Shown: positions 9,646-31,144, counted from the first letter of the stretch. The stretch: 58,078 nt of DNA from an uncultured Candidatus Saccharibacteria bacterium (GCA_964617735.1 CAZTXT010000001.1:78260-136337); one strand, 5' to 3'. Notes: generated by a model not told the origin, from the sequence alone. Translations and numbers: made by a program.

Positions 9646-9668
9646 GCGCAGTCTAACCATCAATCATT

Positions 9669-10475
9669 ATGAATTCAGCTGAATATTCTTCCTCCGAAAG
9701 ACGACAATTGCTCGATCGTTTTTATACCCTGCGGCGCAATCTTTCAGCCCCGCACCATAAGGCGTTCACTATGGCCCAGAGCCAGATGATGGTGAAAGAA
9801 AGAGATGCGGTATTAGATGAATACGCCAAGCGCTTACCTCTCGTCCCGTTGAGCCGTTGCCCGTTTTGCGCCGAGCCGCTCGAATATTCAATAGATGTGC
9901 AGGGACTTGATGGTCCTTGGTGGTTTAATGGGCCGATGGCGGAATTCCCGCAACCCAAATGCTGCACGCACTTTCGGGTTCTGCTCGGCGCGATGGATTT
10001 TCATTCGAATCGTCCGCTTGAGACCGAGCTGATACCCGAAGTGCTGCCCGGTCCTGGGGTTCCTTTTGTCGTGCCCCGACTCCTAGAAATACCGACGATG
10101 AAAACGGTGGTCTCCAGTTTCACTATACCTCCGAACTATATGGCTTATGCGATCGCCTATTTTAGCGAAAATCCCCTTCACGGCGCTTTATTGCACCAGC
10201 CTTGGGGACGTCAGGCCTACCAAGTCCTTGACGAGAATGGAAAATATGAGGGTTGGACTGCGGCCAACGATAAGATTGATTTTGACCTCGGGCCTTGGAT
10301 TGATAAAGGTTTGGTTCTCTGGGTCAACCCGGGCGATTCGACGTTAACTCTGCAGAATCGCCCGCCCTGCCCTTACGTCAATCTTCCCGGCGTTCGGGCA
10401 CCACAGAAAATCGTCCGCGGAGAACTTGAAACCATGCCCCTCCCTACCGGCAAACGGCTTCAACCTTTCGAATAG
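9669..10475 (+). CDS. Hypothetical protein with Cys motifs, just beyond the last CRISPR repeat
   Basis: 268-aa ORF with SRCPFC, GLDGPWW and KCCTH; not a typical CPR core gene. Confidence 0.75.
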   Translation: MNSAEYSSSERRQLLDRFYTLRRNLSAPHHKAFTMAQSQMMVKERDAVLDEYAKRLPLVPLSRCPFCAEPLEYSIDVQGLDGPWWFNGPMAEFPQPKCCTHFRVLLGAMDFHSNRPLETELIPEVLPGPGVPFVVPRLLEIPTMKTVVSSFTIPPNYMAYAIAYFSENPLHGALLHQPWGRQAYQVLDENGKYEGWTAANDKIDFDLGPWIDKGLVLWVNPGDSTLTLQNRPPCPYVNLPGVRAPQKIVRGELETMPLPTGKRLQPFE

Positions 10476-10496
10476 CAGAGCCATATAGGCATTCGG

Positions 10497-10531
10497 GTTG
10501 CACACCATCCTCTTCGCAACGTTACTGCAAG
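10497..10531 (-). repeat. Repeat R6 (leader-distal, degenerate, 35 bp)
   Basis: GTTGCACACCATCCTCTTCGCAACGT--TACTGCAAG: 4 substitutions and a 2-bp deletion versus consensus. Confidence 0.85.
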
Positions 10532-10633
10532 GCCTTCCTGCAGGCAATGCATTTTATAAGTGATTCAGAGAAGCTTCAGATGAAGAGCAGGCCTGTTCGG
10601 AAATCATCCGAACAACGATTCAAGCAATGTTAT

Positions 10634-10664
10634 GAAAGAAAAAGGCCAGCTCCTGCTGGCCTTT
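10634..10664 (-). terminator. Intrinsic terminator in spacer 5
   Basis: AAAGGCCAGC-TCCT-GCTGGCCTTT stem, T-rich tail on the - strand, downstream of ORF 10690-10899. Confidence 0.7.
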
Positions 10665-10689
10665 CGTGATTGCAGCACTCCAAACTTAC

Positions 10690-10899
10690 CTAAATACCAA
10701 CTTTAGCAAGCTCTTGGGGATTGCGGAGCGTGAGCAGCCGTGCTCGCGAAATATGACCCCTCGCCAACTTTTGAAGTGCTCGAAGTTCAGACTTCTCTAC
10801 AGCGGAAAGCACTGAAGACATCTTTTTGCGTAAAAGGGTTACTCGACGGGCATTCTGCCGTTTCCTGAACTTTGATGTACTACTAGACAAGGTTTGCAT
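10690..10899 (-). CDS. Small basic hypothetical protein (spacer 5 cargo)
   Basis: 69 aa, GAAAGGA SD upstream, terminator downstream. Confidence 0.6.
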   Translation of the reverse strand: MQTLSSSTSKFRKRQNARRVTLLRKKMSSVLSAVEKSELRALQKLARGHISRARLLTLRNPQELAKVGI

Positions 10900-11061
10900 A
10901 TATAATCCTTTCTAATTCAGATGATAAGGATTATTGAATAATTTGCAATGGAGTTATTGGAAGCAAATTCAGAGCGCATGTCAGAGAGGACACTTGCACG
11001 GGGCTTCAAACATAAGCAAGGCATTTCTTAACCTTAAAGAATAGGATTTCGAGGGAAAGTG

Positions 11062-11098
11062 GTTGCACACCATTCTTTTCGCGACGTAGTACTGTAAG
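11062..11098 (-). repeat. Repeat R5 (4 mismatches)
   Basis: GTTGCACACCATTCTTTTCGCGACGTAGTACTGTAAG. Confidence 0.92.
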
Positions 11099-11132
11099 CT
11101 TTTACCGTGCGGTCGCGAGGTAGTGGGCCTTG

Positions 11133-11429
11133 TTAAGAGGGCTTGATAATTCGAGCGCGACATGCGCCAAGAAGCGCCCCCAAGAGAAAGAAGATCGGCA
11201 CTCCAAGAGAAATTTCCAACCAATATGGGGGATAAAAATCAAGAATCTCATTAAGTGCCCAGAAAGGTATCCAGGGAAATGCCAAAGGAATGCACTCAAA
11301 TCCTAAACCGGTGTATCCGGGAACAAAAATGTGGTGCATGCAAGATTCGTATAGAGCGCCAGATATCAGCGAGCTAATTCCCGCAATTGCTCCTCCGCGC
11401 AGCCAAGGTGGCCAAAACTTCCAGTGCAT
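11133..11429 (-). CDS. Small membrane protein (spacer 4 cargo)
   Basis: MHWKFWPPWLRGG..., 98 aa, TM segments; start placed just after a TG-n-TATGAT extended -10. Confidence 0.65.
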   Translation of the reverse strand: MHWKFWPPWLRGGAIAGISSLISGALYESCMHHIFVPGYTGLGFECIPLAFPWIPFWALNEILDFYPPYWLEISLGVPIFFLLGALLGACRARIIKPS

Positions 11430-11435
11430 AAGGTT

Positions 11436-11465
11436 ATCATACCAAAGGTTGTTTATCATTGTCGA
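11436..11465 (-). promoter_or_regulatory. Putative sigma70 promoter inside spacer 4
   Basis: TCGACA-N18-TATGAT with TG extension, 6 nt before the ATG. Confidence 0.45.
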
Positions 11466-11521
11466 CAAGAGTGACTGAAAAGCCGATGCACTAAGCATCG
11501 GCTGTGTGGCTCACGACGCTA

Positions 11522-11558
11522 GTTGCACAATATCCTTTTCGCGACGTAGTACTGCAAG
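11522..11558 (-). repeat. Repeat R4 (consensus)
   Basis: Exact 37-bp match. Confidence 0.97.
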
Positions 11559-12061
11559 TTTACTCATATCTGGTTCTTTCTTTTGGGCGAGCGTGCACGT
11601 CGCCAGGCCATGTTTTTGGAGGTGGAGCCACACAACATCAATGCGGTGCGACTGAACCACGGTTGTGCAATAGTTGTAGCCGCGGACGGTCGTGCCAGGT
11701 TGGCTGAGCGCGTGGCGCGAATACAACCACCGAAGATAAAGATGGAAACGGGAAGAATCTGATCCGACTGAATGCTACAGAGACGGACAAGCAAAAACCC
11801 CAGAACACGGTAAGTTGCTCTGGGGAAGCACCTCGCCAGAAACCAAGTTCTGGGGCTGGGTGAGCGTTGGGGAAATCGGAAGCCCGACGCCATCCAGGAT
11901 TAAGTATAATTGTGGATTCTCGATCGTCAAACCTGGTAGTCTGGGAGTCCTGCGGGTTGAGGACGTTTTTATAAAAATGCATTTTTTGTGAAACAGAAAC
12001 GCCCACTTTGCCGTCTTTGTGAGTAGAGTTTCCGATAAAGTGCGGGAATTCTTCAACATGC

Positions 12062-12736
12062 ATGAAGCGAGAAATCGGCTGGGCGCTCGTGCGCCTTGCA
12101 AAAATGCGCCTCTCCCCGGACGCGTGGCATCACTGGGAGCAAGTGCGCAAAGACTGGGCAATGGTTGCGCGTTTTGTGAGCCATTGCCAAAAGGTAACAA
12201 CGGGATGCCACTGCAATCTCTGGGAGGAGGGCTGCCACTGCGAAGCGGAGGCTGAAGTCCTCGTCCAAGAGACCTTGGTTCGAATAGACACAAAGTTGTT
12301 GCCAAAATGCGAGACGATGGAAGTGTGGAGAATAGGTAATTACGTGGAAGAGATTGCGCGGAACGTGGCTTATGGTGAATTCGCGAAAGCTTCAGCGCAG
12401 AAACGTGGAGGTCGTAAAGGGAAAGAGGGGCGACACCAGCTTCCAGAGCGGATTTCGTATCCCGATGCGGAAGAAAGCGAAGACCAGCGGTTGAATCTTC
12501 CTGTAGTTGCCCTCCCTACGCAGGTTCAAACTGCTTCACTCAAAGAATTCGACCAAAAAGTGCGTCGGTTATATTACGATGGCGTAATCGATGACAGAGA
12601 GCTTGAGGTTTTGAGAGACCTCATGGAAGAGCGTACGCAACGCGAGATTCGAGATCGAAGGCGTATGAGCTTGAGCCGAGTTAACGCATGCTGTAAGAAG
12701 CTGCGGGAGATTCTGCGAATGCATTGGAGTTGGTAA
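12062..12736 (+). CDS. ECF-type RNA polymerase sigma factor-like protein
   Basis: Region 2-like AEVLVQETLVRI, KRGG motif, C-terminal region 4 HTH (RTQREIRDRRRMSLSRVN). Confidence 0.65.
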   Translation: MKREIGWALVRLAKMRLSPDAWHHWEQVRKDWAMVARFVSHCQKVTTGCHCNLWEEGCHCEAEAEVLVQETLVRIDTKLLPKCETMEVWRIGNYVEEIARNVAYGEFAKASAQKRGGRKGKEGRHQLPERISYPDAEESEDQRLNLPVVALPTQVQTASLKEFDQKVRRLYYDGVIDDRELEVLRDLMEERTQREIRDRRRMSLSRVNACCKKLREILRMHWSW

Positions 12737-12755
12737 TTCTCTTCAGCCAGAAAAT

Positions 12756-12784
12756 GCCGCCTGGTTCGAAAGGAACCGGGCGGC
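12756..12784. terminator. 12-bp stem-loop between the sigma and anti-sigma-like genes
   Basis: GCCGCCTGGTTC-GAAAG-GAACCGGGCGGC. Confidence 0.45.
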
Positions 12785-12799
12785 TTACTAATACTTGAA

Positions 12800-13090
12800 A
12801 TGAGCAACTTGAACGCGAAGTCAATAGGCACGGGAACAGTTTGTATTTCGGAAGATGATCTTCTGCTTTTCGTCAGCGAGAACTTCGCTGAAACAAAAAT
12901 GGGCGCGTATGTAATTGCGGAGCACTTAAACCAGTGCCGGAAATGCCGGGACCGGGAGGGTCGGATTCGGGCGCGTTTGCAACATTTATTAACAACCGTC
13001 GCACAGATGCCGAACTGGAAGTGGCTGGATAGCGAGCATTCCGTTTACCGAGAAAAAGGCTGGCTAAAACTCAAGAGGAAGGGCGCGTAA
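12800..13090 (+). CDS. Putative zinc-binding anti-sigma (zf-HC2/ZAS) domain protein
   Basis: EHLNQCRKCR matches HxxxCxxC; directly downstream of the ECF-like gene. Confidence 0.55.
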   Translation: MSNLNAKSIGTGTVCISEDDLLLFVSENFAETKMGAYVIAEHLNQCRKCRDREGRIRARLQHLLTTVAQMPNWKWLDSEHSVYREKGWLKLKRKGA

Positions 13091-13177
13091 AGGAAAGTGC
13101 GGAGCTGGAAGAAAGGGAGCCTGCTCCGGTTTCTCAGGGTGAGTCCGATTGAATTGCTTTCGTAGGACTTGTTCGGC

Positions 13178-13432
13178 TCACTTGACCCGCTTGGCTGCGA
13201 GTTCTGCCTCGTGTAGGACGGTTGAAAGTTCCAGGCGGAGCGCGCCCGAGATCCGAAGCAATGTTTCGAGCGATGGGTTCCGTTGCTCACTTTCGATAAG
13301 GCTGATCATGCCTTGGGAAAGACCAGACATTTCTGCCAGGCGGGTCATGGAAATGTTCTGCTCTTTCCGCTTTTCACGCAATATGCGGGCGACGTGCGAA
13401 CAAACGGATTCGCGATAGCCGATTTTTGTCAC
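13178..13432 (-). CDS. XRE-family HTH transcriptional regulator
   Basis: LREKRKEQNISMTRLAEMSGLSQGMISLIESEQRNPSLETL. Confidence 0.9.
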   Translation of the reverse strand: MTKIGYRESVCSHVARILREKRKEQNISMTRLAEMSGLSQGMISLIESEQRNPSLETLLRISGALRLELSTVLHEAELAAKRVK

Positions 13433-13464
13433 AGTTAAGGGCTACCAAAAAAATCCATTGACAA

Positions 13465-13489
13465 CGGACATTACTATAGTAATAGTCCG
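13465..13489. promoter_or_regulatory. Palindromic operator in the divergent promoter region
   Basis: CGGAC-ATTACTATAGTAAT-A-GTCCG with a perfect 14-bp core palindrome, 1 nt after TTGACA (13458-13463). Confidence 0.6.
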
Positions 13490-13491
13490 AT

Positions 13492-13734
13492 ATGTTCATT
13501 CGGCGTCTTGGCCCGGATCCGCACGCAAACGGGAATCGAACCTTTGCGGTGAAAGGGTGCCCTGATATTTTCGAGCTGGATGGTGGTGATTTCGCGGTTA
13601 TCGGCACGGACATTACTGCGGTGGCCGAGAGCAAATTGCCTCCTTCTGCCAGTTGCGGGGCTGACGAAAGGGTTGTTCGAATACCCCGGAAGACCCTTGT
13701 ATTAGCGAAACCAGACATACCCGACAAGATATGA
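13492..13734 (+). CDS. Small hypothetical protein (CPDIFEL...GDFAVIG motif)
   Basis: 80-aa ORF divergent from the XRE gene; well-formed protein-like sequence. Confidence 0.7.
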   Translation: MFIRRLGPDPHANGNRTFAVKGCPDIFELDGGDFAVIGTDITAVAESKLPPSASCGADERVVRIPRKTLVLAKPDIPDKI

Positions 13735-13767
13735 GCCGCCACTTGCTTTTCGTGTTAAAATGGGCCG

Positions 13768-14223
13768 GTGGAAAGCTGGCTTGCAAAAAACTGGTTCGAA
13801 GCCGTGAGCACAATCGGGATTGTTGCCAGTCTGTTATTTACCGCGCACTCGCTGCGCGCGGAGACAAACTCACGAAGGATCAGCAATTTGATTACGTTAA
13901 CGCACAATCATCGCGAAATTTGGAGCGAATTTTTCAAAAATCCGAAATTGGAGCGGATCCTTACCGGGCAGCCAACGATTTTGGAACGCCCGATCACAAT
14001 CGAAGAAGAAATATTGGTGAATCTGGTCATTCAGCAATTGCAGAGCGTGTTTTACGCCATATCGGACAAGCTAGTACTCAAGCCGGAACAATTGGGCACA
14101 GATGTAAGGGATTTTTTGTCGCTGCCGATCCCCCGCGCAGTTTGGGAGAAGAACAAAACTCTGCAAAATCGCGATTTCGTTTCATTCGTGGCGGAGCAGC
14201 TTCAACCTCGTCGCAGTGGTTGA
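13768..14223 (+). CDS. Hypothetical protein with N-terminal TM (DUF6082-like, tentative)
   Basis: 151 aa, one TM then a helical domain; GTG start. Confidence 0.65.
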   Translation: MESWLAKNWFEAVSTIGIVASLLFTAHSLRAETNSRRISNLITLTHNHREIWSEFFKNPKLERILTGQPTILERPITIEEEILVNLVIQQLQSVFYAISDKLVLKPEQLGTDVRDFLSLPIPRAVWEKNKTLQNRDFVSFVAEQLQPRRSG

Positions 14224-14293
14224 AGCGTGCAAGAAAGGGCTTTTGACTGACTAAAACCATACGGCACAGGGGAGGCAACATATCAGGTGTCAT

Positions 14294-14515
14294 TCACAAA
14301 TCGGCAACAAGATCGGACACTTTAACGTGTAACGCATCGGAGATGCGGAGTAAGGCATGAAGGCTGATCCATTTTTCGCCTCGCTCGATTTTGCCAAGAT
14401 AGACCGGGTGGAGGTTCGCCTGTTCTGCAAGGTTTTCCTGGGTAAGTTTTGCGTGTTTCCGATGCTTCCGAATTGCTTCACCGAGATTTCGTCTTCGTTG
14501 TTGAATGCGCGACAC
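14294..14515 (-). CDS. XRE-family HTH regulator
   Basis: IRKHRKHAKLTQENLAEQANLHPVYLGKIERGEKWISL. Confidence 0.9.
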   Translation of the reverse strand: MSRIQQRRRNLGEAIRKHRKHAKLTQENLAEQANLHPVYLGKIERGEKWISLHALLRISDALHVKVSDLVADL

Positions 14516-14706
14516 AGTCGTTTAGGAGAGCAAGAAGCGCAGGCGGAAAACACACCCCATAGGGGTTCATTTTGTTCTTGCATTTGGGAAGGGTTTTGTC
14601 AGTATCGGCATAGCGTGGGCGATGGTTCAGTCTATTGGCGGCGCTCCACTGGCTGAGTTTCCATCCTTCCGGGAGTTGCATTTAGAAGTCAGCAGAGAAC
14701 TTAATC

Positions 14707-15957
14707 ATGAAAACGAGTAGACCAATTGGGACTTCAGCGGGTCTTTTGATTCTGATAGTAGTGTGGTTTGCGCCGGGAGGACTTGCTCAAGTGAACAGTG
14801 GGAGTGACGGGCGTGATGGCCCACTCGATCCCGGAATATGCCCAGGCGGGGCGTGTAGTGTCGTCATCGACATGCACGATCATCCAGATGGGGTTTATCA
14901 ATATACTGCCGTTAATATGGCTCCTGGAGTTACTGTGACGTTTGTGCCAAATTCGAATAATACTCCGGTTGTTTGGTTGGTGCAGAGCAACTGTGTAATT
15001 AGCGGAGGCGCAACCGTCATTGTGACGGCACAAGGTGGGAGCGGTGGGTCAGGTGGGGCAGGAGGGCCCGGTGGATTTCGCGGAGGCAATGGAGGAACGC
15101 TTAGCGCTGGAGGAATGGGGCCTGGCGGGGGATTGGCGGGCGGCTACGTTGGCGGCACTGGATCATATGGAATGTTTGGCACGAATGCCGCGGGGACTAC
15201 TAATGGAGATGGAGCTATCTATGGAAATCAATTTCTGCTGCCCCTGGTTGGCGGTTCCGGTGGGGCTGGCTCAATGGGAAGTTGTAGCACCATCGCCTTT
15301 GGCGGCGGGGGCGGCGGGGGAGCGCTATTGATTGTCGCGTCCGGAAGAATCCTGCTGGATGGGAGTATCGAGGCATGCGGTGGTCCAGCATGCGGAGGAT
15401 TTTACGCCTGTCCTGGAGGATTCAGCACGAATATCGCGGGAGGTGATGGCAGCGGGGGGGCGGTGAGGCTAGTTGCCTCACAAATTCTTGGCAGCGGCAG
15501 CATCTATACCGGTCGCTCAGGAAGCTATTGCGGTGAGGCCAGTTTTGGAGGTTTAGGAAGAGTCAGACTTGACTCCCCGGATTTAAACTTCGGTGGAATA
15601 ATTACGGCTGTAGCAAGTCAAGGATTCCAGCCGATAATTATTCCTTCACAAGGGACAGGTGTTCAACTAGCGATTGCAAGCATTGGCGGAGTACCGGTTT
15701 CTGCGTCTCCAACTGGACAACTTGCAACTCCTGACGCTGTGCTCTCCAGTCAGCAGAGCAACCCTATTCCCATCGTTGTGAATTGCTCGAATATTCCGTT
15801 AAACACGCAGATCACGGTGGTAGTCAGGCCAGCTACTGGCCCGGCTGTAAGCGCGACAGGACTCAACAACACTGGGACGCTCTTGGCGAGCACGGCTACC
15901 GTTTTGCTTAATATGCCGCGAGGCGGGGGAATCATTTACGCAACTGCAGCAAACTAA
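14707..15957 (+). CDS. Secreted glycine-rich protein
   Basis: Signal peptide, SGSDGRDG, long G-rich tracts, C-terminal beta-sandwich-like region. Confidence 0.8.
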   Translation: MKTSRPIGTSAGLLILIVVWFAPGGLAQVNSGSDGRDGPLDPGICPGGACSVVIDMHDHPDGVYQYTAVNMAPGVTVTFVPNSNNTPVVWLVQSNCVISGGATVIVTAQGGSGGSGGAGGPGGFRGGNGGTLSAGGMGPGGGLAGGYVGGTGSYGMFGTNAAGTTNGDGAIYGNQFLLPLVGGSGGAGSMGSCSTIAFGGGGGGGALLIVASGRILLDGSIEACGGPACGGFYACPGGFSTNIAGGDGSGGAVRLVASQILGSGSIYTGRSGSYCGEASFGGLGRVRLDSPDLNFGGIITAVASQGFQPIIIPSQGTGVQLAIASIGGVPVSASPTGQLATPDAVLSSQQSNPIPIVVNCSNIPLNTQITVVVRPATGPAVSATGLNNTGTLLASTATVLLNMPRGGGIIYATAAN

Positions 15958-15965
15958 AACGCCGG

Positions 15966-17951
15966 ATGAGGTCTTCGACGCAACTTGGAATAGTTGCAAC
16001 CTTGCTCTTGAAATCGCTCTCGTTATGCGCAGACGAGGTTACTACAAACGCCATGTCGCCTATCGTGAGCTACCAATACCTTAATGCCGTGGATGAGCAG
16101 GGAACAACGCTGGCAAGTCCGATAGTTAGTTTCCAATTCCTGAGCTCATTGGGCGAGGCGGCAACGACAGTATTTAGCCGCATTGTGGGCTACCAGTATT
16201 TGGATTGGGCAGGCAATGACGCGTTACAACTGGAGAGCAGTGATCAGGTGAGCTATTACTATCAATTTCTAAACGTCCCGCCTCTCGTTATTATCCCTAC
16301 GAATCGCACGGCAACTGCCACAGAGGTCAGTCCTTCAGTTGTTCTCCCTGGCCCAGATCCTTGGCAACTCAAGACGTTCACAAATGGCATGCTTAGGACT
16401 AACGTGGCGCCTGATTCAAACTGGATGAGCGTTGTGCTGACCCATGGCTGGAACAGCAGCCCGGAGGCATGGGCAACGAACATGGCACAATTGATTTCTG
16501 CAAACGCTACAACATCGGCGAATATTTTAATTTGGGACTGGACGAGCGCTTCGCAGTCCACGCCATGCCTCTCATTGCAGGCGGATTTCGTTGGAGCGGC
16601 GCGACTGACACCTGACCAAGGATTCGCGTTAGCGATGGCATTGCGCTCGAAATTAGGAACAAATTATTCGCACCAGATTCATTTTATCGGGCACAGCCTT
16701 GGCGCTCTGGTAAACGGATTCGCCGCAATCTACCTCCATCACCACGGATTCGCTCCTACTAACACTCAAATAACAATGTTTGATGAAGCAGAAGTAGCAA
16801 CAGATCTGAGTTGCCCGGAACTCTTGAATGCAGTCCTGTTCAACCAGTGGAATCCTCTTTCGCCGAAGCCATACTATTGTCATCCCCTGCCGCGGCAATT
16901 CGCCTGGGCAGACAACTACATCACTGCGTTCGGGCTTCTGCATCCTGATGCGCACAACGTCATCCTTACGAATGGTTTCCCGGGCAATGCTGCGAACCTG
17001 ATAAACTTGGGTCAGAAGTTAGCTAATTTTCACAGTTACCCTTGCGATTGGTACGCCGAGACGGTTAGCAGTAACAATTCGGCGATGGGGCATCAGTGGT
17101 CGTTTGAGCAGGGCGGATTTTCGGGAGGGCGCGACACGAACACCGTCTTCCGTCAATCGTTTAATGGGTCGCTTTGGAATCTTGCGGAGTTGGATTATGC
17201 TGCTGGCAGCAATTACTTGGCCGGGCGATTTGAGAAGTATCGCGACGCCGTGAAGTATGCTGTTACTAATAAGTCTCCGAGCGCTATCGCCGCAAATGGA
17301 ATTGTGTTCGGCTTCGTGCTTCTTGGGCTTACATTTGACGGCTTCGTTTTGTACTTGCAAACCAGCGCTGCCAGTCCTCAAGTTTCTGAATTCCCCCGCC
17401 AGGGTTCCCACGGGCACGACGGTGGTGCGGGCGGGAACGGGAGCACGGGCGCATGTGCCTGGTTGAGGCTACCGATTCCTGCCGACGGAGTTTCCATCTC
17501 CTTTGATTTCAAGGTTGACGGCGATTGGCAGGATGATTCGCTGGCGGCGGCACTAAATGGAACAAACTTACTTCTACTTGCCGCCAGCCAAGTCGAGACC
17601 AACATTGTGCTCAATAGCGGCCTCATTGATATAAGGTCATATGCTGGCCAAACGAACGAACTCTTTGTCGGAATCGTTGGAGGCACCTCCACGAATGCTC
17701 TGCTGACCGTGGGGAACGTTGCGATCTACACAGCCGCAGTGCCGTCATTGCACGGGGAAGTAAGCGGAAGGGATTTCAACATTTCGTGGCCGCTCACGGC
17801 ACAGAACTTCAACTTGGAATCTACAACCAATCTGGAGCTGATAAATTCTTGGACGGCAGTCACCAACACCCCGGCCATAGTCAATTTCCAGAACATAGTC
17901 ACGAATGACGCTTCCACGGATAGTAGGTTTTACCGTCTAAGAAAGTATTAA
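15966..17951 (+). CDS. Secreted alpha/beta-hydrolase (lipase-like) with C-terminal Verrucomicrobia-style appendage
   Basis: VLTHGW, nucleophile elbow GHSLG; C-terminus ISWP...FNLESTTNL...W...VTN...RFYRLRK. Confidence 0.75.
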   Translation: MRSSTQLGIVATLLLKSLSLCADEVTTNAMSPIVSYQYLNAVDEQGTTLASPIVSFQFLSSLGEAATTVFSRIVGYQYLDWAGNDALQLESSDQVSYYYQFLNVPPLVIIPTNRTATATEVSPSVVLPGPDPWQLKTFTNGMLRTNVAPDSNWMSVVLTHGWNSSPEAWATNMAQLISANATTSANILIWDWTSASQSTPCLSLQADFVGAARLTPDQGFALAMALRSKLGTNYSHQIHFIGHSLGALVNGFAAIYLHHHGFAPTNTQITMFDEAEVATDLSCPELLNAVLFNQWNPLSPKPYYCHPLPRQFAWADNYITAFGLLHPDAHNVILTNGFPGNAANLINLGQKLANFHSYPCDWYAETVSSNNSAMGHQWSFEQGGFSGGRDTNTVFRQSFNGSLWNLAELDYAAGSNYLAGRFEKYRDAVKYAVTNKSPSAIAANGIVFGFVLLGLTFDGFVLYLQTSAASPQVSEFPRQGSHGHDGGAGGNGSTGACAWLRLPIPADGVSISFDFKVDGDWQDDSLAAALNGTNLLLLAASQVETNIVLNSGLIDIRSYAGQTNELFVGIVGGTSTNALLTVGNVAIYTAAVPSLHGEVSGRDFNISWPLTAQNFNLESTTNLELINSWTAVTNTPAIVNFQNIVTNDASTDSRFYRLRKY

Positions 17952-17981
17952 CTCACCGCAGGGGCTCAGCGGCAACCGCCG

Positions 17982-18392
17982 CTAGTCGTGGAAGATGGTA
18001 GCCAAAAACGGTATGGCGACCAAAGAGACAAAGAGATCAAGCACGACGGCTAGAAAGATGCCGAAGGCAATTAGTTTTAGGATTATTTGGAACTGGGCTC
18101 GCGGCGGCTTCTGGTTGATTGTGGCTTCTGTGGATGGTTGATGTGAAGTGCTTGGCCTGGATCTTGTCTGATCTTGGGTTGGACGCAGGAATAGGAGAAT
18201 CAGTATAGAGCCGACAATTAGAATACCTGATAGAAGGCCACCCCGTATCATAACCTGCATTTCTGCCATGATATCGTCGGCAGGTTGCGGCATAAAGACG
18301 ACATATGACAGTATTATAGCGCCAACGAAGGAGCCTAACGTGATGGCAACGTAAGAAATGTAGCGAATAATGTGAATCAAGGCGTTTTTCAT
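17982..18392 (-). CDS. Three-TM hypothetical membrane protein
   Basis: 136-aa ORF with hydrophobic segments. Confidence 0.6.
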   Translation of the reverse strand: MKNALIHIIRYISYVAITLGSFVGAIILSYVVFMPQPADDIMAEMQVMIRGGLLSGILIVGSILILLFLRPTQDQTRSRPSTSHQPSTEATINQKPPRAQFQIILKLIAFGIFLAVVLDLFVSLVAIPFLATIFHD

Positions 18393-18529
18393 ATGTCTTG
18401 TTGTCTTGTTGCGCAGGGGTGACCATTATTGTACCCGAAATTAGTTTCATAAAAAAGCCGACGTTGTGGACGTCGGCTGTGTTGGCTCAAAGCATCCGTT
18501 GTAGGAGGCCTGTGAGCAGCAAAATAATA

Positions 18530-19171
18530 TTAGGCAAGTCGAGCACGTGCCGTGCGACAGTGGTGCTCGTCCAGTTCAATGAGGACGAACTTGCGATGAG
18601 CAGCCCTGGCGGCAACACCAGTGGTGCCCGAACCTGCAAACGGATCTAGCACAATATCGTCTGGTTGCGAGAATGCTTCGATCAGCGGCAAAAGACAAAT
18701 CACCGGTTTTTCCATTGGGTGAAACTCATTTCCTGTGTATTCCCAATCGAAAACGTCATCTGGCGGATAGGCCGGCCTCAGCGGTTTGCCTTTGGCCAGG
18801 AGGAATGCTACTTCGTGATAGCTGCGAGTGTAGCCCTCGCGTGAACAATAGTCTTTCACCCAGATCAGATGACTGACCGGACGAAACCCCACCTGTTTCC
18901 AAACGTGCATAAACCGATCAATCCAAGGCCAGCCATAAAAGCTGGCGCAAAATCGGTCGGGCTTAAGCACGCGATGAATCTCGTGAAATGCCGGCCGCAA
19001 CCAATGATTGTTGTCATCGTTGGCGCAACGCCGACCGTCGCGAGCAACATACCTGGTTAGGTAAGGTGGATCGGTGAGCACTAAGTCAACACTTGCGTCG
19101 GGCATCGTGCGCAGAACGGAAATGCAATCGCCGTGAATGACCTGGTTAAGGAAGCTATCGATGGTTTGCAT
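18530..19171 (-). CDS. Orphan DNA methyltransferase (N6-A/N4-C, beta class)
   Basis: Motif IV TDPPY precedes motif I DPFAGSGTT; HPMEKP. Confidence 0.92.
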   Translation of the reverse strand: MQTIDSFLNQVIHGDCISVLRTMPDASVDLVLTDPPYLTRYVARDGRRCANDDNNHWLRPAFHEIHRVLKPDRFCASFYGWPWIDRFMHVWKQVGFRPVSHLIWVKDYCSREGYTRSYHEVAFLLAKGKPLRPAYPPDDVFDWEYTGNEFHPMEKPVICLLPLIEAFSQPDDIVLDPFAGSGTTGVAARAAHRKFVLIELDEHHCRTARARLA

Positions 19172-19185
19172 GTTAAGCCTCCTTT

Positions 19186-19473
19186 TCAGTAATCCTCAGG
19201 CAACAGCACTGTTGTGACAGACCGATCAGCTTCGGTGATAAGCCAGAACTTCGTGCCGTTCTGTGCGTGATATACGGAAAGCAAACGGAAGCCTTCTTTG
19301 AGTGAAAGGTCATTTTCGCTTCTGTCATCTTCACTCACGTCGCCCCAATCGCCAGCCTGGTGCCGTTGAATGGCGACCAGGATGTCTTGGTTTGATACCT
19401 TTCCAAGCGCATTTGGGGTGGCCACAATCCTGCCAAGCCGTAACCGAGCAATGGGTGGTTTGTGAGCGCTCAT
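19186..19473 (-). CDS. Plasmid/ICE-associated conserved small protein
   Basis: LGRIVATPNAL...RHQAGDWG...RLLSVY...WLITEADRSVTTVLLPEDY, a family I recall from mobile-element leading regions. Confidence 0.75.
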   Translation of the reverse strand: MSAHKPPIARLRLGRIVATPNALGKVSNQDILVAIQRHQAGDWGDVSEDDRSENDLSLKEGFRLLSVYHAQNGTKFWLITEADRSVTTVLLPEDY

Positions 19474-19799
19474 AAGCCGAAGTCCTCCATTGCCGAGGCA
19501 ATGGCGTCTTCGTCATCGCCAAGGATTTCCACCAAACCTGCTTTTAACGCTGCCTTGTCGAGGTCGGGTCTGGCCCCCTTGGGACAAGCAGGGCAGCGGA
19601 TAACATCGAGAATTGAGGCACCGAACTCATAACCGGCCGCTTTGAACTGCTCGCGATACCGCCCCGAAAGCCGTTTGGCGACGGGTAGGGAGCGCCAAGC
19701 TTCGGCTTCAGCATGGTCGACGGTCGTTTCGAAAATGGCATCGTGCCGGAGGTGATAGACATCCCACGGCTCATTGCATGATGAACAATGAACATCCAT
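19470..19799 (-). CDS. Hypothetical protein with CxxC pairs
   Basis: MDVHCSSCNEPWD...CPAC; overlaps the next gene by 4 nt. Confidence 0.7.
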   Translation of the reverse strand: MDVHCSSCNEPWDVYHLRHDAIFETTVDHAEAEAWRSLPVAKRLSGRYREQFKAAGYEFGASILDVIRCPACPKGARPDLDKAALKAGLVEILGDDEDAIASAMEDFGL

Positions 19800-19814
19800 A
19801 CGCGTGCTCCTTTC

Positions 19815-20490
19815 TCAGTTGTAGAAGTAACCAAGCTGTCGGAGCGAGCAATGGTTGGGATTGCCAATTATGACATGATCGAGGACCTCAATTTTAAGAA
19901 GTTGGCCCGCGCGAATGAGGTCTCGCGTGACTTTGATGTCTGCCTCTGATGGTTGCGGCTCACCGCTAGGATGATTGTGCATGAGCACAACGGCCGCTGC
20001 CGCCGTGATTATTGCGACCCGGAACACCTCCCGTGGATGGACGAGGATTGTATCGAGCGTGCCGATGCTCACCATCTGATGCCCTTTCACACGCCGGCGT
20101 GTGTTAAGCATGAGGACAGCGAAACATTCGCAGTCCGGCATGAAATACGGATTTGTGGCGATATGGGACCGCCAATAATCGGCAGCGTTCTCTGGAGTTT
20201 CGCACAAATGCATTCCCTCCGGCATGGGGCATTCGCGCAATGTGATTACTTTGTATTCCTTGGCCGGCGGGATCGGTTTGGGATCTGCCGGGGCCTCCTG
20301 CAATTCGAGAGTTGAGGCGGGAACGATTGCATACTTATCCCTGGGGTCATTTCGGGATCGGTGCGTTGGCGCACCGCAAGGATGTTGCCAGCAACGGCGC
20401 CCGGCATTCCAATGGAAGCCAAGATCTTTCAGTTTATCGCGGATTTCCTTGAGTGGCGCGACCGAAAATTCGAGCCACACCCATTTGCCG
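19815..20490 (-). CDS. RadC/JAB-domain protein, 5'-truncated at the repeat
   Basis: VHPREVF, HNHPSG...PSEADI, LDHVII; the frame runs into repeat R3 with no native ATG. Confidence 0.85.
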
Positions 20491-20527
20491 GTTGCACAAT
20501 ATCCTTTTCGCGACGTAGTACTGCAAG
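20491..20527 (-). repeat. Repeat R3 (consensus)
   Basis: Exact 37-bp match. Confidence 0.97.
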
Positions 20528-20591
20528 AACAATCACCGATTTGCTGCAATCTCGATAACGGATAGGAAAGGGCCTGGCAAAAGTTGCAAGC

Positions 20592-20621
20592 AAAAAGGCA
20601 ACGAGAAGAACGCGTTGCCTT
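20592..20621 (-). terminator. Intrinsic terminator in spacer 2
   Basis: AAGGCAACG/CGTTGCCTT 9-bp stem with a T run on the - strand. Confidence 0.55.
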
Positions 20622-20651
20622 CGTGTGAGTCCTCTGCGAACCCTATCTGCA

Positions 20652-20828
20652 TCAGGAAATGCCGAACTTCGCAATCGTAAGCCGGAAGTTTCGTGAGGGC
20701 TTTACCCTGGCATGATTCCGAAGGGATAGATTCAAGGATTCCGAGATCCTGCGGACCTTTTCTGCCATACTTTGGACCTCTCGAATCTCTGACAGAGTCA
20801 AGGATTGTTTTGAGTGTAGTTTATTCAT
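20652..20828 (-). CDS. Small basic hypothetical protein (spacer 2 cargo)
   Basis: MNKLHSKQSLTLSEIREVQ..., 58 aa, followed by a terminator. Confidence 0.35.
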   Translation of the reverse strand: MNKLHSKQSLTLSEIREVQSMAEKVRRISESLNLSLRNHARVKPSRNFRLTIAKFGIS

Positions 20829-21197
20829 AATGGTAAGCCAACAAAGCAAGTGAGAGGCCGTCTCTAAAGGGTTGCCGTACGCAATTATAGACATTTGAAT
20901 GAACCGTGTTCTCCAAAGAGGAACTTGGACAGGCCTTCTGCATCCTAGACATTCCTCCTTTGCTTTGCTGATGGTACCAAATTAGTCCGATTCTGTAAAT
21001 CGGCTTTGGGGTATTGTGCCCATCACAGAAAGCAGGCACACTTTGTCCCCGCCTGGTACAGCTTTGAGACAAACAGACTTGGAACCGCTCAAAGAAGACC
21101 CCGAATCCTTAATTGGCGGAAGAAGGAGTAAAGGGCTTCCACAGCCGCCGCTGCGCCAACTTAGACGTGATAGGTATTGCGTGGTTCCGAACTGACA

Positions 21198-21234
21198 GTT
21201 GCACAATATCCTTTTCGCGACGTAGTACTGCAAG
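21198..21234 (-). repeat. Repeat R2 (consensus)
   Basis: Exact 37-bp match. Confidence 0.97.
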
Positions 21235-21335
21235 GTAAGGGGCCTTTCGGGGGCTGTTATGTTGACGATCAGATCAAATTTGCCGTCACCGTCCCACGGG
21301 CGGTTGACACGCCTGAAAATCTGAAGAGGACCATA

Positions 21336-21629
21336 ATGGTTGAGAGCTTGAAGGCTCAATTGGAATCCTTGCGTGAATCACGACGCGAGAGGGATGAAGC
21401 CGCCGAGATTATCAGGAATGCTTTTAACGAGGTGAGTACCATCAACAAGGTGGCGAATGCGTTTAATACTATGCATCACCAAATGAAAAAGGAGAAAGAA
21501 GAGGCGGCACGGAAAGCAGCTCAAGAAGAACGATTGACCCCTGAGCAAACAGAGGAATTTGTAAAGGAGGCCCTGCAACAAGTTGATAAGCTCTTCCTCG
21601 CCTTGACGGACCGATACTTGCCTAAATAG
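21336..21629 (+). CDS. Coiled-coil hypothetical protein (spacer 1 cargo)
   Basis: GAGGA SD then ATG 21336; 97 aa, charged and helical. Confidence 0.65.
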   Translation: MVESLKAQLESLRESRRERDEAAEIIRNAFNEVSTINKVANAFNTMHHQMKKEKEEAARKAAQEERLTPEQTEEFVKEALQQVDKLFLALTDRYLPK

Positions 21630-21657
21630 AAAAAAGGGGTGCCAGTGGGCACCCCTT
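21630..21657. terminator. Terminator between convergent spacer 1 ORFs
   Basis: AAGGGGTGCC-AGTG-GGCACCCCTT with an adjacent A run. Confidence 0.7.
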
Positions 21658-21691
21658 GTCGCGCGACTGAGCCAAGAATTCCGACCCGCAC

Positions 21692-22132
21692 TTATAACCT
21701 CATTGTGGGCGACGGCGACCCACCGCAGAGCTGTTCGAATTCCTTAGCGGCTTCGTCACCTACCTCCTGTTCGGATGGCGGCTCAACGTAAATCTCGGCG
21801 CAAAGCCGTTGGAAGGTTTCTTGGTAAGACCTGAAGAACTCGGGGTGGCGCCGCATACCGTTTCGCAGCAGATCCTTGATGAATCGGCAACAGGCCTGTT
21901 GCTGCTGATGGTGAAGTTCGCAAATCTTACTTACATGCGAAAAACTCACATGACTCTCCAACTGACGGCGGGCTTCTTCCCTGCAGACAGAGGAGACGAG
22001 CTCACCAAATTGACGCCGTTCGTCCAGCGACAAACGAGGGAGCGTGAGTAAGAAGAGGCGCTTCCACGCAACTTCTCCCTGACTGTCATTTGAGTTCGGG
22101 GTCAGTAGCGCTAATGATTGGGAACTAAGCAT
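21692..22132 (-). CDS. Hypothetical helical protein (spacer 1 cargo)
   Basis: GAAAGGA SD then ATG 22132 (MLSSQ...); 146 aa. Confidence 0.65.
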   Translation of the reverse strand: MLSSQSLALLTPNSNDSQGEVAWKRLFLLTLPRLSLDERRQFGELVSSVCREEARRQLESHVSFSHVSKICELHHQQQQACCRFIKDLLRNGMRRHPEFFRSYQETFQRLCAEIYVEPPSEQEVGDEAAKEFEQLCGGSPSPTMRL

Positions 22133-22250
22133 AGTTGAATTCCTTTCGTTGGCTGATTGGCAGTGCAGAACTCCGCGTACACCATGCACGTGGCGTTCTG
22201 TCTGCCAACCGAGGTTTCTCTGCTTAGTACCGCCCCCTCCATCTTTCGCC

Positions 22251-22278
22251 ATTATATCACGCCTATAATCTATGTCAA
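22251..22278 (-). promoter_or_regulatory. Consensus sigma70 promoter inside spacer 1
   Basis: TTGACA-N16-TATAAT on the - strand. Confidence 0.75.
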
Positions 22279-22524
22279 GAGTATTACAGCCTGACTAAAA
22301 AGCAGAGATTTGCTTGCTGACAGTCTGGGCAGAAGGCTAACTGTCCGGTCTGCGGCCATGCACGACATTCATTCGCGGATGGAGTTTCGCGTCAGCCTGT
22401 TCGTCCTCGCCGGTGAGAACCAACAATGCGATTGGGTAGAAGCGTTCATCATCAAAAACGGAGTGTGCGTCGCGCGGACCGGATTACCATCGTTCTTAAT
22501 ATGACGCATAAGCACGCTGATCGA

Positions 22525-22561
22525 GTTGCACAATATCCTTTTCGCGACGTAGTACTGCAAG
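22525..22561 (-). repeat. Repeat R1 (leader-proximal, consensus)
   Basis: Exact 37-bp match, 38 bp from the cas2 stop. Confidence 0.97.
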
Positions 22562-22599
22562 AGCCAGCAATTTAAGGATTGCCTTCTGAATTTACTTGA
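22562..22599 (-). promoter_or_regulatory. Putative minimal CRISPR leader (38 bp)
   Basis: The only sequence between the cas2 stop and the first repeat. Confidence 0.5.
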
Positions 22600-22881
22600 C
22601 TAAACGATCTCGTATGGTTTTCTATTGCGTGTAATGGCATAGGAAACGTCGTGCCGTTTGAAACAATCTGCGCACAAGACAACTACATGGTACTTATCAT
22701 TGCGACCGTTGAAAATATTTTTCATTTTATTTTCAAATTCAAGTCGTTCGTTTGTACTTATTGGCCCCGAAAATAAATTGCGATGAAGCGAAATAAGTCC
22801 ATAATCAGCACACACAGTCCGCGCCCGTTCTGCCTTTCGAGCATTCTTTGCAAACCATAGTACTATAGAACCCGAATTCAT
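22600..22881 (-). CDS. cas2: Cas2-like protein (divergent)
   Basis: 93 aa directly after cas1; DYGL...LFSG...D...VVLCADCFK aligns by eye with Cas2; the N-terminal YDI motif is replaced by WFA. Confidence 0.75.
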   Translation of the reverse strand: MNSGSIVLWFAKNARKAERARTVCADYGLISLHRNLFSGPISTNERLEFENKMKNIFNGRNDKYHVVVLCADCFKRHDVSYAITRNRKPYEIV

Positions 22882-22892
22882 CCTATTGATAT

Positions 22893-23894
22893 TTATAAGA
22901 GCACAGAGAAATCTATCGACAAGTAGGAGGTCTGATTTCCCAGAAAACATCGACTCAAAACACGGTTCTGCTCTAAAATGACATCTCTTAGCGTTCGGCG
23001 TTTCCCCTTCCAAAATATCCTCTGGTTCAGACGATTTAACACACCTTCAACTACCTTGGCCTTCCCTTCTGGAGAAAGACGGTATTCATCTTTGCTTATT
23101 TTTTCAAAATCACTACGCTTGCCGAGTTTTTTCTCTATGAAGAGCGGAATGATCGCGGAATCCACGATTGGAACTCGAAATTCCTCAACAAGGTCAAGCA
23201 CCAAAGCCGGTTTACCGTAGCGGTCGGAGTGGTATAAACCCAGATAGGGATCGAGTCCGACATAGAGGCACGCGCGTTCGACTTCATTATAGAGAATTCC
23301 GTATCCGTAGTTGAGTGCGCTGTTGAATTTGTCACGTCCTTGTGGAACACGACCAGGAAATTTATGCAGACGTTTCAAACAGTCCCAGTATTTATCTGCT
23401 ATAAAACCCTCAGTCCCCAGTAGCTGGTTACGGGCTTTTTCTCCACCTGGGATTCCCCAGATATTCTGTAGTAAAGTCTCGGCTTGCACGATTTCTTTTC
23501 CAAAATCCTTGCCGTATTTTGCCGAGAGGAATTTAAGGTATGTGATCTGATTGCGACATTTTCCATAAACAAATTGTTTTGCCAACTCGAATGATCGAAT
23601 CGGATCACTAGATACGACAAGTTGACCTCGACGCATTGTTGCTAACCCCTTCGAATCGCTCGAGAAAATTCTTCCAACAGGTTTTCCGAATGACCCGAGA
23701 TAAACAATGTCTACTTCATGCTCGATAGCGAGCCGGACGGCATGCGTAGAAATAGAAGAGGGTCGCAGGATTACAATTTTATTCAGACGCCGGATGGGAT
23801 ATTCCTTGCGCTTTTTCGTTTTCGGAAATCGCAGAGCGATACGTTCACCAGTCGATCCTATAAAGGTGCCGTATGTATCAATGAGTAGGTCCAT
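22893..23894 (-). CDS. cas1: CRISPR-associated integrase Cas1
   Basis: LLGTEG, NSALNYGYGILY, GLDPYLGLYH, LVLDLVEEFR; catalytic E/H/E present. Confidence 0.96.
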   Translation of the reverse strand: MDLLIDTYGTFIGSTGERIALRFPKTKKRKEYPIRRLNKIVILRPSSISTHAVRLAIEHEVDIVYLGSFGKPVGRIFSSDSKGLATMRRGQLVVSSDPIRSFELAKQFVYGKCRNQITYLKFLSAKYGKDFGKEIVQAETLLQNIWGIPGGEKARNQLLGTEGFIADKYWDCLKRLHKFPGRVPQGRDKFNSALNYGYGILYNEVERACLYVGLDPYLGLYHSDRYGKPALVLDLVEEFRVPIVDSAIIPLFIEKKLGKRSDFEKISKDEYRLSPEGKAKVVEGVLNRLNQRIFWKGKRRTLRDVILEQNRVLSRCFLGNQTSYLSIDFSVLL

Positions 23895-23924
23895 AAGAAT
23901 TTCTCTTAAACCTATAACAGGCCA

Positions 23925-23952
23925 ATATTAACACAGATAAGAATAATGTCAA
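23925..23952 (-). promoter_or_regulatory. Putative cas1-cas2 promoter
   Basis: TTGACA-N16-TAATAT with TG extension, 30 nt upstream of cas1. Confidence 0.55.
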
Positions 23953-23989
23953 CATACGGCTTCCCAGCAAATCACGCTAGTATGGAGCC

Positions 23990-28111: not shown

Positions 28112-28184
28112 TCCGCCCACCAGGGATCGAACCTGGGACCTTCTCCTTAAAAGGGAGCTGCTCTACCAGCTGAGCTATGGGCGG
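28112..28184 (-). tRNA. tRNA-Lys (anticodon TTT)
   Basis: CCGCCCA acceptor, loop CTTTTAA, GGTTCGATCCC. Confidence 0.93.
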
Positions 28185-28360
28185 GTATTTAATTTTCCTA
28201 GTGCTACCAACCGCTGTTGTGACGTCGAGCCATCGACCTGCCAGAACAGCTATGGCGGATATTTAGTTTTCTCACTGCTACCAAGTACTGTTATGGTGTT
28301 GAGCCATCGACCTGCCAGAACAGCTATGGGCGGGTATTTAATTTTCTCGGCGCTATCAAA
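28173..28360. repeat. Tandem repeat, about 2.5 units of 74-75 bp, each containing the tRNA-Lys 5' end
   Basis: Units start at 28173, 28248 and 28322 with AGCTATGG(G)CGG.TATTTA.TTTTC; GAGCCATCGACCTGCCAGAAC is shared. Confidence 0.85.
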
Positions 28361-30839: not shown

Positions 30840-30856
30840 AGGGTACAAGGCACAAG

Positions 30857-30982: not shown

Positions 30983-31144
30983 TTCGTTAGCCGAAACTCG
31001 TCCATCTCACCGAAAATCTAAAAGAGATTTTCTGTGTTCTCTCGCAGCAAAGCGAGCGTCGTGTAAGTTTCGGCAAGCAGTTTCTTATTTAGGTAAATTG
31101 TTGTCCGAAGACCAATTTGGCAACCCGCTTCAGTATATAAAAAG

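Follow-up and report, generated by a model that had tools for sequence, protein, structure and literature searches.

The window analysed here, a 58,078-nt stretch of DNA (GCA_964617735.1, CAZTXT010000001.1:78260-136337), carries next to its cas1 and cas2 genes an array of direct repeats separated by unusually long inserts, the largest of which (8,932 bp with 13 open reading frames (ORFs), exact coordinates 11559-20490) is the main subject of this analysis. The 37-nt CRISPR-type repeat (CRISPR, clustered regularly interspaced short palindromic repeats), GTTGCACAATATCCTTTTCGCGACGTAGTACTGCAAG, is present in four unchanged and two degenerate copies (Table 1), with no copy elsewhere in the 763-kb genome. 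These repeats enclose five inserts of, in order, ~0.5, 0.42, 8.9, 0.67, and 1.29 kb, the 8.9-kb insert being the third (“spacer 3”) and the others spanning 423-1,290 bp. A gap of 38 nt separates the array from the stop codon of cas2, and cas1 and murE follow. Cas1 passed the generic Cas1 model alone, with none of the NCBIfam-type subtype models above its cut-off, and its best matches among solved structures include ordinary Cas1 proteins and the Methanosarcina mazei casposase (6opm; among the top three). Among the window ORFs that were compared with Pfam, none is an effector gene.

The host genome (three contigs, 51.5% GC, 99.99% complete) is that of a Candidatus Taylorbacteria-like bacterium (Paceibacteria) of the Candidate Phyla Radiation (CPR). 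This is confirmed by its small size, by the 0.4-1.1 Mb genomes of its relatives at genus to order level, and by the PolA encoded in the window, whose best named matches are Candidatus Taylorbacteria proteins (73% and 71% identity), alongside a Candidatus Paceibacterota protein (70%). A preliminary description of the window, made without database searches, had likewise placed the array in a CPR genome. Five genomes of the same genus have rpsT, ruvA, and murE next to each other (gaps of 4-470 nt) and lack the 14.3-kb block at 9646-23989, which consists of one 268-aa orphan gene, the array, cas2, and cas1; the block is thus specific to this species. At two metagenomic loci from related organisms (L145 and L146), cas1 occupies the same position between murE and ruvA.

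Table 1. Features of the repeat array, its 8,932-bp insert, and the adjoining cas genes (window coordinates).
Feature	Coordinates	Strand	Basis or remark
Whole array	10497..22561		Six repeats, starting at 10497 and 11062 (degenerate) and at 11522, 20491, 21198, and 22525 (unchanged); five inserts
Left-boundary repeat of the insert, identical copy	11522..11558	+	CRISPR-type
Orphan ORF, 224 aa, possibly sigma-70/ECF-like	12062..12736	+	Sub-threshold NCBIfam match
Orphan ORF, 96 aa, HxxxCxxC (ZAS-type) motif	12800..13090	+	Motif in translation
XRE-family HTH (helix-turn-helix) regulator, 84 aa	13178..13432	-	Pfam HTH_3 1.5e-14
Conserved ORF of putative cargo module, 80 aa	13492..13734	+	Homologues in Limisphaerales/Verrucomicrobiia
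Conserved ORF of putative cargo module, 151 aa	13768..14223	+	Homologues in Verrucomicrobiota
XRE-family HTH regulator, 73 aa, divergent from the Gly-rich gene	14294..14515	-	Pfam HTH_3 4.6e-13
Gly-rich protein, 416 aa, N-terminal signal-like segment	14707..15957	+	Homologues upstream of lipase
Lipase/alpha-beta-hydrolase-like protein, 661 aa, signal-like N-terminus, ...FYRL C-terminal domain	15966..17951	+	Pfam Lipase/Abhydrolase_6
Small membrane protein, 136 aa, convergent with the lipase gene	17982..18392	-	Homologue in L164
Orphan N6/N4 DNA methyltransferase, 213 aa, last gene of the predicted RadC operon	18530..19171	-	Pfam N6_N4_Mtase 5.5e-32
GDWG/TEADRS-type plasmid/ICE (integrative conjugative element) protein, 95 aa	19186..19473	-	Verrucomicrobiae and plasmid homologues
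Cys-rich ICE protein, 109 aa	19470..19799	-	Verrucomicrobiae homologues
RadC (JAB) fusion gene, 5'-truncated at the right junction	19815..20490	-	Pfam RadC 8e-39
Right-boundary repeat of the insert, identical copy	20491..20527	+	CRISPR-type
Part of the newest insert with self-match	21588..22355		95.7% to the same genome, C1:576797-577567
cas2, 93 aa as called in Logan; ORF open to 23013	22600..22881	-	Pfam CRISPR_Cas2, weak
cas1	22893..23894	-	Pfam Cas_Cas1 9e-67; TIGR00287 229.6 bits

With the exception of radC, all ORFs of the insert are intact. Their number and the lack of internal repetition were described correctly before: the interior contains neither a copy of the 37-nt repeat nor another notable repeat. 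Pfam domains also bear out the two XRE-family regulators, the lipase-like protein, the DNA methyltransferase, and RadC. The “ECF sigma” label of the 224-aa ORF is unconfirmed, as this protein reaches 21.6 bits with the sigma70-ECF model of NCBIfam (cut-off 42.9), has neither a Pfam match nor a homologue in the homologue search, and gives a poor AlphaFold2 model (predicted local distance difference test score of 51). For the “ZAS-like” 96-aa ORF, the HxxxCxxC motif on which the label is solely based is present (HLNQCRKC), and no family match was obtained. Of the “plasmid-type small proteins”, the 95-aa ORF deserves the name, since its family was found on 181 plasmids (identities up to 59%), 114 of them conjugative or mobilizable; the 109-aa ORF matched a single plasmid.

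Judged by their sequences, the remaining genes appear to form two units. A putative cargo module comprises an XRE regulator, the 80-aa and 151-aa ORFs, the second XRE regulator, the Gly-rich and the lipase-like secreted proteins, and the small membrane protein. A predicted operon of the leading-region type consists of the RadC fusion gene, which is cut at the junction, the 109-aa ORF, the 95-aa GDWG protein, and the orphan DNA methylase, and its 3' end is marked by a terminator-like hairpin after the methylase gene (18478-18456). Both amino acid motifs highlighted in the preliminary description are present, namely SGSDGRDG at an N-terminus and ISWP...LESTTNL...RFYRL at a C-terminus, and the latter is conserved in homologues. 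More generally, a C-terminal domain of ~60 aa with this pattern (SWP...L.STTNL...W..VTN......FYRL), for which there is no Pfam model, is found in hundreds of secreted Verrucomicrobiota proteins with varied N-terminal domains. This domain may serve in sorting or anchoring and be specific to the phylum.

The closest or sole relatives of 11 of the 13 ORFs are found in Verrucomicrobiota; the 224-aa and 96-aa ORFs are orphans. RadC is 70%-71% identical to two copies in the Verrucomicrobiae genome G043, compared to 50% for the best CPR match, and the methylase has its best Verrucomicrobiota match at 46%-47% and its best CPR match at 34%. These CPR control searches covered 400 genomes for RadC and the methylase, 230 for the short ORFs (E <= 1e-6), and 40 close relatives of the host for the lipase. 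No relative of the 80-aa, 151-aa, 95-aa, 109-aa, 96-aa, or 136-aa ORFs was detected in the 230 genomes, and no relative of the lipase in the 40. The same Verrucomicrobiae genome, G043, encodes homologues of the 95-aa protein (66%-67%) and, adjoining them, of the 109-aa protein (61%-68%). The best matches per ORF thus point to Verrucomicrobiota, with CPR matches absent or weaker, as the preliminary description had anticipated.

The lipase was examined in most depth. A scan of one genome per species (185,579 species genomes) yielded 117 relatives, and the best 80 of these loci, which were analysed further, are labelled Verrucomicrobiota (n = 57), Planctomycetota (n = 5), or are unlabelled (n = 12), the rest being singletons. 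In the protein collection, the lipase has 144 relatives, the best of which is metagenomic and 66% identical. The best species-genome match is a Limisphaerales metagenome-assembled genome (MAG; locus L003, 61%-63% identity), and maximum-likelihood analysis places this sequence and the window protein as sisters with a Shimodaira-Hasegawa-like approximate likelihood ratio test (SH-aLRT) support of 100. The enclosing clade of 17 rows (support 99) is labelled Verrucomicrobiota throughout except for one mislabelled bin, L007 (DASRLE010000066.1, labelled Candidatus Saccharimonadales). This sequence was considered as a second CPR carrier and rejected, as the bin has a size of 6.1 Mb and its Verrucomicrobia-type genes have GH2 and carboxylesterase genes as neighbours, indicating mislabelling or heavy contamination. 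Given that the nearest labelled relatives are Limisphaerales, the earlier term “Pedosphaera-like” applies loosely; no Pedosphaera record is among the best 80 loci. A tree was built for this one gene, and the assignment of the remaining genes is based on best matches and synteny.

This synteny links the insert to mobile elements. In the Verrucomicrobiae MAG G043, an island on the 771-kb contig CAVTVR010000007 (locus L008) contains, in this order, genes for ArdC, a DUF6166 protein, homologues of the 95-aa (67%) and 109-aa (61%) proteins, a DnaG-type primase, an XRE regulator (53%), the 80-aa ORF (59%), two Gly-rich proteins (50%), and the lipase (42%); genes for a small membrane protein, a Replic_Relax protein, a coupling protein of the TrwB type, and an OLD nuclease come next. 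On the basis of this gene content, the island is classified as an integrative conjugative or mobilizable element (ICE/IME). The best metagenomic locus (L164) combines the Gly-rich protein (63%), the lipase (66%), the membrane protein (40%, in the same position and orientation; 26% in L008), and a coupling protein. Parts of the cargo module recur elsewhere in Verrucomicrobiota: the 84-aa XRE regulator is 58% identical to a protein of genome G550, where it adjoins homologues of the 80-aa and 151-aa ORFs; the 80-aa ORF has 65%-70% identity to Limisphaerales/Verrucomicrobiia loci (L004, L006, and L118) and the 151-aa ORF 38%-50% to Verrucomicrobiota loci (L005, L006, and L118); and the 73-aa XRE regulator has counterparts of 53%-54% in the same position in L005 and L008. 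The Gly-rich protein gave 35 tblastn matches in Verrucomicrobiota-dominated loci, several with two or three copies, and its homologues are always found immediately upstream of a lipase homologue. In G664, the genes for the 109-aa protein, the 95-aa protein, and RadC are contiguous, in that order.

The composition of the insert agrees with a foreign origin. Its tetranucleotide distance from the genome mean (z = 3.6) is in the top 1.7% of 9-kb windows, and its tetranucleotide (TETRA) correlation with the host is 0.295, as opposed to 0.656 +/- 0.108 for 33 host windows (minimum 0.296). The codon-usage distance is 3.72 to host genes (z = 3.2) vs. 2.65 to related Verrucomicrobia loci. The GC content of the insert (52.2%) is close to that of the host (51.5%), but as related Verrucomicrobia loci range from 49% to 56%, this match is uninformative. 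A TETRA comparison with candidate donor loci, with a maximum correlation of 0.52, was not discriminating. The array region overall is a tetranucleotide outlier as well. As a separate observation, three other regions of the host genome (G000:C1:316000-333000, 66000-79000, and 372000-385000) show a tetranucleotide deviation equal or nearly equal to that of the insert.

Taken together, best matches, ICE-like synteny, the lipase tree, the CPR controls, and composition support the preliminary view of the insert as Verrucomicrobiota-type mobile-element DNA in a CPR genome. The assignment holds at phylum level, and the insert probably originated in the neighbourhood of Limisphaerales/subdivision 3. 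Absent from this site in relatives, deviant in composition, and with a lipase nested in Verrucomicrobiota, it has the hallmarks of an island from a foreign phylum. Since the nearest relatives are 61%-66% identical, the label Verrucomicrobiota is derived from family distribution and synteny rather than from near-identity. No sequence closer than 66% at the protein level was found in the collections searched, including assemblies of the same runs, which indicates that the donor lineage is unsampled or rare.

A different source would be an element that circulates among CPR bacteria, or has a broad host range, and shares genes with Verrucomicrobiota ICEs, in which case the insert would carry no trace of a Verrucomicrobia cell. 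The cas1-cas2 module seems to be mobile among CPR bacteria, judging by its varied chromosomal sites and the serine recombinase in genome G313 described below, the 95-aa family has a wide distribution on plasmids from many phyla, and even the closest known relatives of the insert reach just ~66% identity, all of which would be compatible with such an element. Nevertheless, relatives of the short ORFs occur in none of the sampled CPR genomes, RadC and the methylase match CPR proteins much more weakly than those of Verrucomicrobiota, Verrucomicrobia loci resemble the insert in codon usage more than the host does, and the pair of Gly-rich protein and FYRL-type lipase represents a multi-copy family native to Verrucomicrobiota chromosomes. 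We therefore regard this origin as quite improbable.

The junctions of the insert were examined in independent Logan assemblies. One contig (SRR12313479_810996) corresponds to window positions 15569-20520 and ends 30 nt into the right repeat, and another (SRR12313479_640976) begins 30 nt inside the left repeat and continues into the insert. Likewise, a murE-cas1-cas2 contig from SRR12313480 breaks off after 29 nt of the same repeat. Contigs end ~30 nt into the repeat because a graph with k = 31 meets a repeated 37-mer at this point. The ends of the insert thus abut the repeat in the reads, and the fragment is truly flanked by this repeat. This bears on whether a Verrucomicrobia contig was misjoined into a CPR contig at the repeat, so that the insert would not be part of the CPR chromosome. 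The identity of the four flanking repeats, which makes a short-read graph ambiguous, and the foreign composition of the insert would fit such a chimera. Against it stand not only both insert ends and the CPR murE-cas1-cas2 contig running into the same repeat, but also the repeat family itself, which belongs to the CPR Cas1 clade and is found nowhere else in the genome; the Verrucomicrobiota genomes G041 and G043 have Cas1 matches of just 32%-37% identity. In addition, kilobase-sized inserts recur in related loci from other samples. A misassembly is accordingly highly improbable.

The right junction also reveals what kind of DNA was inserted. RadC begins there with the motif GKWVW, upstream of which the homologue in G664 has ~66 further codons; the 5' part of the gene and the promoter of the operon are therefore missing from the insert. 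Among the 13 ORFs, Pfam identified no integrase or recombinase, relaxase, coupling protein, or type IV secretion system gene, and no terminal inverted repeat was found, whereas relaxase-type and coupling proteins adjoin the homologous modules in L008 and a coupling protein adjoins those in L164. Circular permutation was considered and rejected: joining the ends with or without the repeat restores no RadC frame, and the left end is unlike the missing N-terminus in G664. As the joined ends give no intact RadC, the insert is not a circle opened at the repeat, and it represents a fragment of an integrative conjugative or mobilizable element rather than a complete element.

Arrays of this type are rare but not unique. 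Cas1 was found in 4 of 301 genomes of the host's order, and a metagenome scan retrieved 16 loci with a Cas1 of 59%-75% identity. Several of these related loci contain homologous 37-nt repeats after cas2 (consensus CCTGCA...GTCGCA.AAGG....TTGTGCAAC). Locus L137 (4937-7793) has three repeat copies, 1,299 and 1,519 nt apart, and locus L140 (7323-15068) has two copies at a distance of 7,709 nt, the second of which exactly cuts a gene for a Mutator-type transposase. Both encode a Cas1 that is 72%-74% identical to the window Cas1, and both are located after RecJ-PGK-TIM. The other loci show one repeat, and no short spacer was found in any of the related Cas1 loci. In another family of the same order, locus L090 (G313:C33:1-3400) encodes a Cas1 of 66% identity, cas2, and one related repeat (466-502), with a large serine recombinase on the opposite side. 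The different sites of the module, i.e. after RecJ-PGK-TIM (L137 and L140), between murE and ruvA (the window, L145, and L146), and beside a serine recombinase (G313), suggest that the cas1-cas2-repeat unit is itself mobile. Our literature searches yielded no description of such arrays and nothing specific on kilobase-sized spacers or on CPR-Verrucomicrobia links, and the run accessions were found in no paper.

The best overall explanation, which we consider probable, is that a fragment of a Verrucomicrobiota ICE/IME lies between CRISPR-type repeats of a CPR genome and was captured by Cas1-Cas2, the capture itself being deduced from the arrangement of the locus. The CPR cell would have received the Verrucomicrobiota conjugative-element fragment in linear form, most simply by uptake through ComEC and type IV pili or possibly by an aborted conjugative transfer. 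Cas1-Cas2 would then have integrated it at a repeat in a reaction resembling spacer acquisition, free of the usual length limit, and the repeat would have been duplicated in the process. The decay of the repeats is polar, with the four copies nearest to cas2 being identical and the two farthest copies decayed, which is the pattern that addition of inserts at the cas2 end, with repeat duplication, would produce.

A real Verrucomicrobiota insert could also have been placed by recombination instead of Cas1-Cas2, through Campbell-type integration of a circle carrying one repeat or through a recombinase or transposase. A single crossover at the 37-nt repeat would likewise produce two flanking direct repeats, a large serine recombinase is encoded beside cas1 in G313, and the Cas2 is divergent. 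The insert, on the other hand, contains no recombinase, transposase, or terminal inverted repeats, its ends cannot be joined into an intact RadC, and a Verrucomicrobiota element has no reason to carry a CPR repeat. Furthermore, loci with this architecture, including genes interrupted at repeats, were encountered strictly beside this Cas1 clade, and the polar repeat decay fits addition at the leader end. We consider placement by recombination unlikely.

Capture by Cas1-Cas2 would be uninformative with regard to host contacts if the array including the insert had been built in another organism and had arrived en bloc with a mobile cas1-cas2 unit. The absence of the 14.3-kb block from the five same-genus genomes, the tetranucleotide deviation of the whole array region, and the several unrelated chromosomal contexts of the Cas1 relatives are in line with such an arrival. 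The newest insert (21235-22524), however, contains 771 nt with 95.7% identity, on the opposite strand, to its own genome (G000:C1:576797-577567), suggesting later acquisitions in this lineage, and the presence of cas1 at the same murE/ruvA site in L145 and L146 suggests that the locus is older than the species. An arrival of the finished array thus seems an unlikely course of events. The matching chromosomal region is a second copy of a 186-aa ORF, whose neighbours contain no mobile-element domains.

Several points weigh against capture of Verrucomicrobiota DNA by Cas1-Cas2. The integration step is deduced from architecture alone, with a divergent Cas2, and short-read graphs cannot order inserts between identical repeats. 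Apart from RadC, the ORFs are intact, which could point to a very recent capture or to selection for function. In the large searches, two to three candidates were scored per genome, so that weak CPR homologues could escape detection. The nearest relatives are 61%-66% identical in protein and ~70%-75% in DNA, too distant to name a donor, and the collections searched contain no relatives of the 224-aa and 96-aa ORFs. Finally, taxon labels are those given to MAGs by their submitters, and some of them are wrong, as in the case of L007.

The locus shares features with several known systems and differs from each of them in others. As in canonical CRISPR adaptation, cas1-cas2 is found beside 37-nt direct repeats that bound heterogeneous, partly foreign inserts, and the distal repeats are decayed. 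The inserts in the window, however, are 0.42-8.9 kb long and contain whole genes, compared to ~30-40 bp for canonical spacers; accordingly, the 8,932-bp insert resembles a spacer in being flanked by repeats beside cas1-cas2 and departs from one in lacking the short uniform length (about 26-72 bp). Further differences are the 38 nt between cas2 and the first repeat, the lack of an effector gene among the window ORFs examined, and a Cas1 that reaches the cut-off of no subtype model. Casposons similarly tie a Cas1-family integrase to kilobase-sized insertions flanked by direct duplications, in keeping with the structural match to the casposase 6opm. In contrast to casposons, the insert lacks cas1, a polymerase, and terminal inverted repeats, the window encodes a Cas2 and has its cas1 outside the insert, and what is duplicated is a fixed 37-nt repeat, at one locus, instead of a variable target site. 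Integrons provide a parallel as fixed chromosomal platforms that collect foreign, gene-bearing tandem inserts separated by a repeated site, but the window contains neither IntI or another tyrosine recombinase nor attC, and genes are cut at the repeat both here (RadC) and in L140 (transposase).

With the ICEs/IMEs of the Planctomycetes-Verrucomicrobia-Chlamydiae group, such as the island in L008, the insert has in common the cargo module and leading-region-type genes (42%-71% protein identity) and the local gene order. Unlike these elements, it contains no genes for an integrase, relaxase, coupling protein, primase, or ArdC, and one of its ends falls within a gene; from this gene content it is predicted to be unable to move by itself. 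As a record of an encounter, the insert is comparable to the archived foreign DNA used for spacer-protospacer host linking or for inferring inter-phylum transfer. It differs in being a long fragment of a cellular mobile element whose donor is resolved to phylum or order, and in that environmental uptake would give the same record.

This last difference is relevant for the proposal in the preliminary description that the insert could identify the host of the CPR bacterium or a close neighbour, a proposal that goes beyond the evidence. The relatives of the insert are at most 66% identical, the other inserts are not Verrucomicrobia-like, and the newest insert is self-like. Specifically, a search of 300 Verrucomicrobiota genomes gave no relatives for the ORFs in the four remaining inserts or for the orphan gene next to the array, and 300 CPR genomes contained none apart from the self-match. 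The match of the newest insert to its own genome indicates that the array samples mixed sources, including self-like or CPR-derived DNA. The host genome encodes ComEC and at least four ATPases of the PilB/PilT (type IV pilus) type, so that uptake of free DNA from any lysed cell suffices for capture, and competence-type uptake of this kind would yield the same record as contact with a partner. The insert thus appears to document contact with Verrucomicrobiota-derived DNA and not a physical partnership or symbiosis. That the donor was a true physical partner is an open hypothesis of low probability.

A bolder scenario, which we rate as rather unlikely, is cell-to-cell delivery from an attached Limisphaerales-like Verrucomicrobiota cell, with arrays that would preferentially archive conjugative leading-region DNA and its cargo. 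Leading-region genes are the kind that enters the recipient first in conjugation, and the leading-region-type operon predicted in the insert keeps this scenario alive. If it were true, the kilobase-sized “spacers” could serve as a register of physical partners, and a Paceibacteria lineage would have a named host among the Verrucomicrobiota. To our knowledge, the hosts of almost all Paceibacteria/Parcubacteria-type CPR bacteria are unknown, which makes any genomic trace of their contacts valuable.

Irrespective of the route of entry, the insert is an unusually clean case of cross-phylum capture from Verrucomicrobiota to CPR, with 8.9 kb of DNA, intact genes, and a defined site. Among cas1-cas2 arrays storing kilobases of DNA rather than 35-bp spacers, it is one insert whose donor in another phylum is well resolved. 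If many array inserts could be assigned to donors, the association between CPR lineage and sampled phylum would become statistically testable, turning host range into a tractable survey.

Additional observations concern other parts of the host genome. Unusually for a Paceibacteria-type genome, a UbiA-family prenyltransferase is encoded in the region G000:C1:568000-571200 (L159:54-3165), together with the C-terminal part of a cytochrome/quinol oxidase subunit I. Within the window, partial tRNA-like tandem repeats with units of 74 nt (81%-84% identity) at 28163-28359 adjoin a tRNA-Lys gene (28112-28184), and a pair of 127-nt direct repeats (87% identity), 334 nt apart, is located at 30856-31316; both may be remnants of integration sites.

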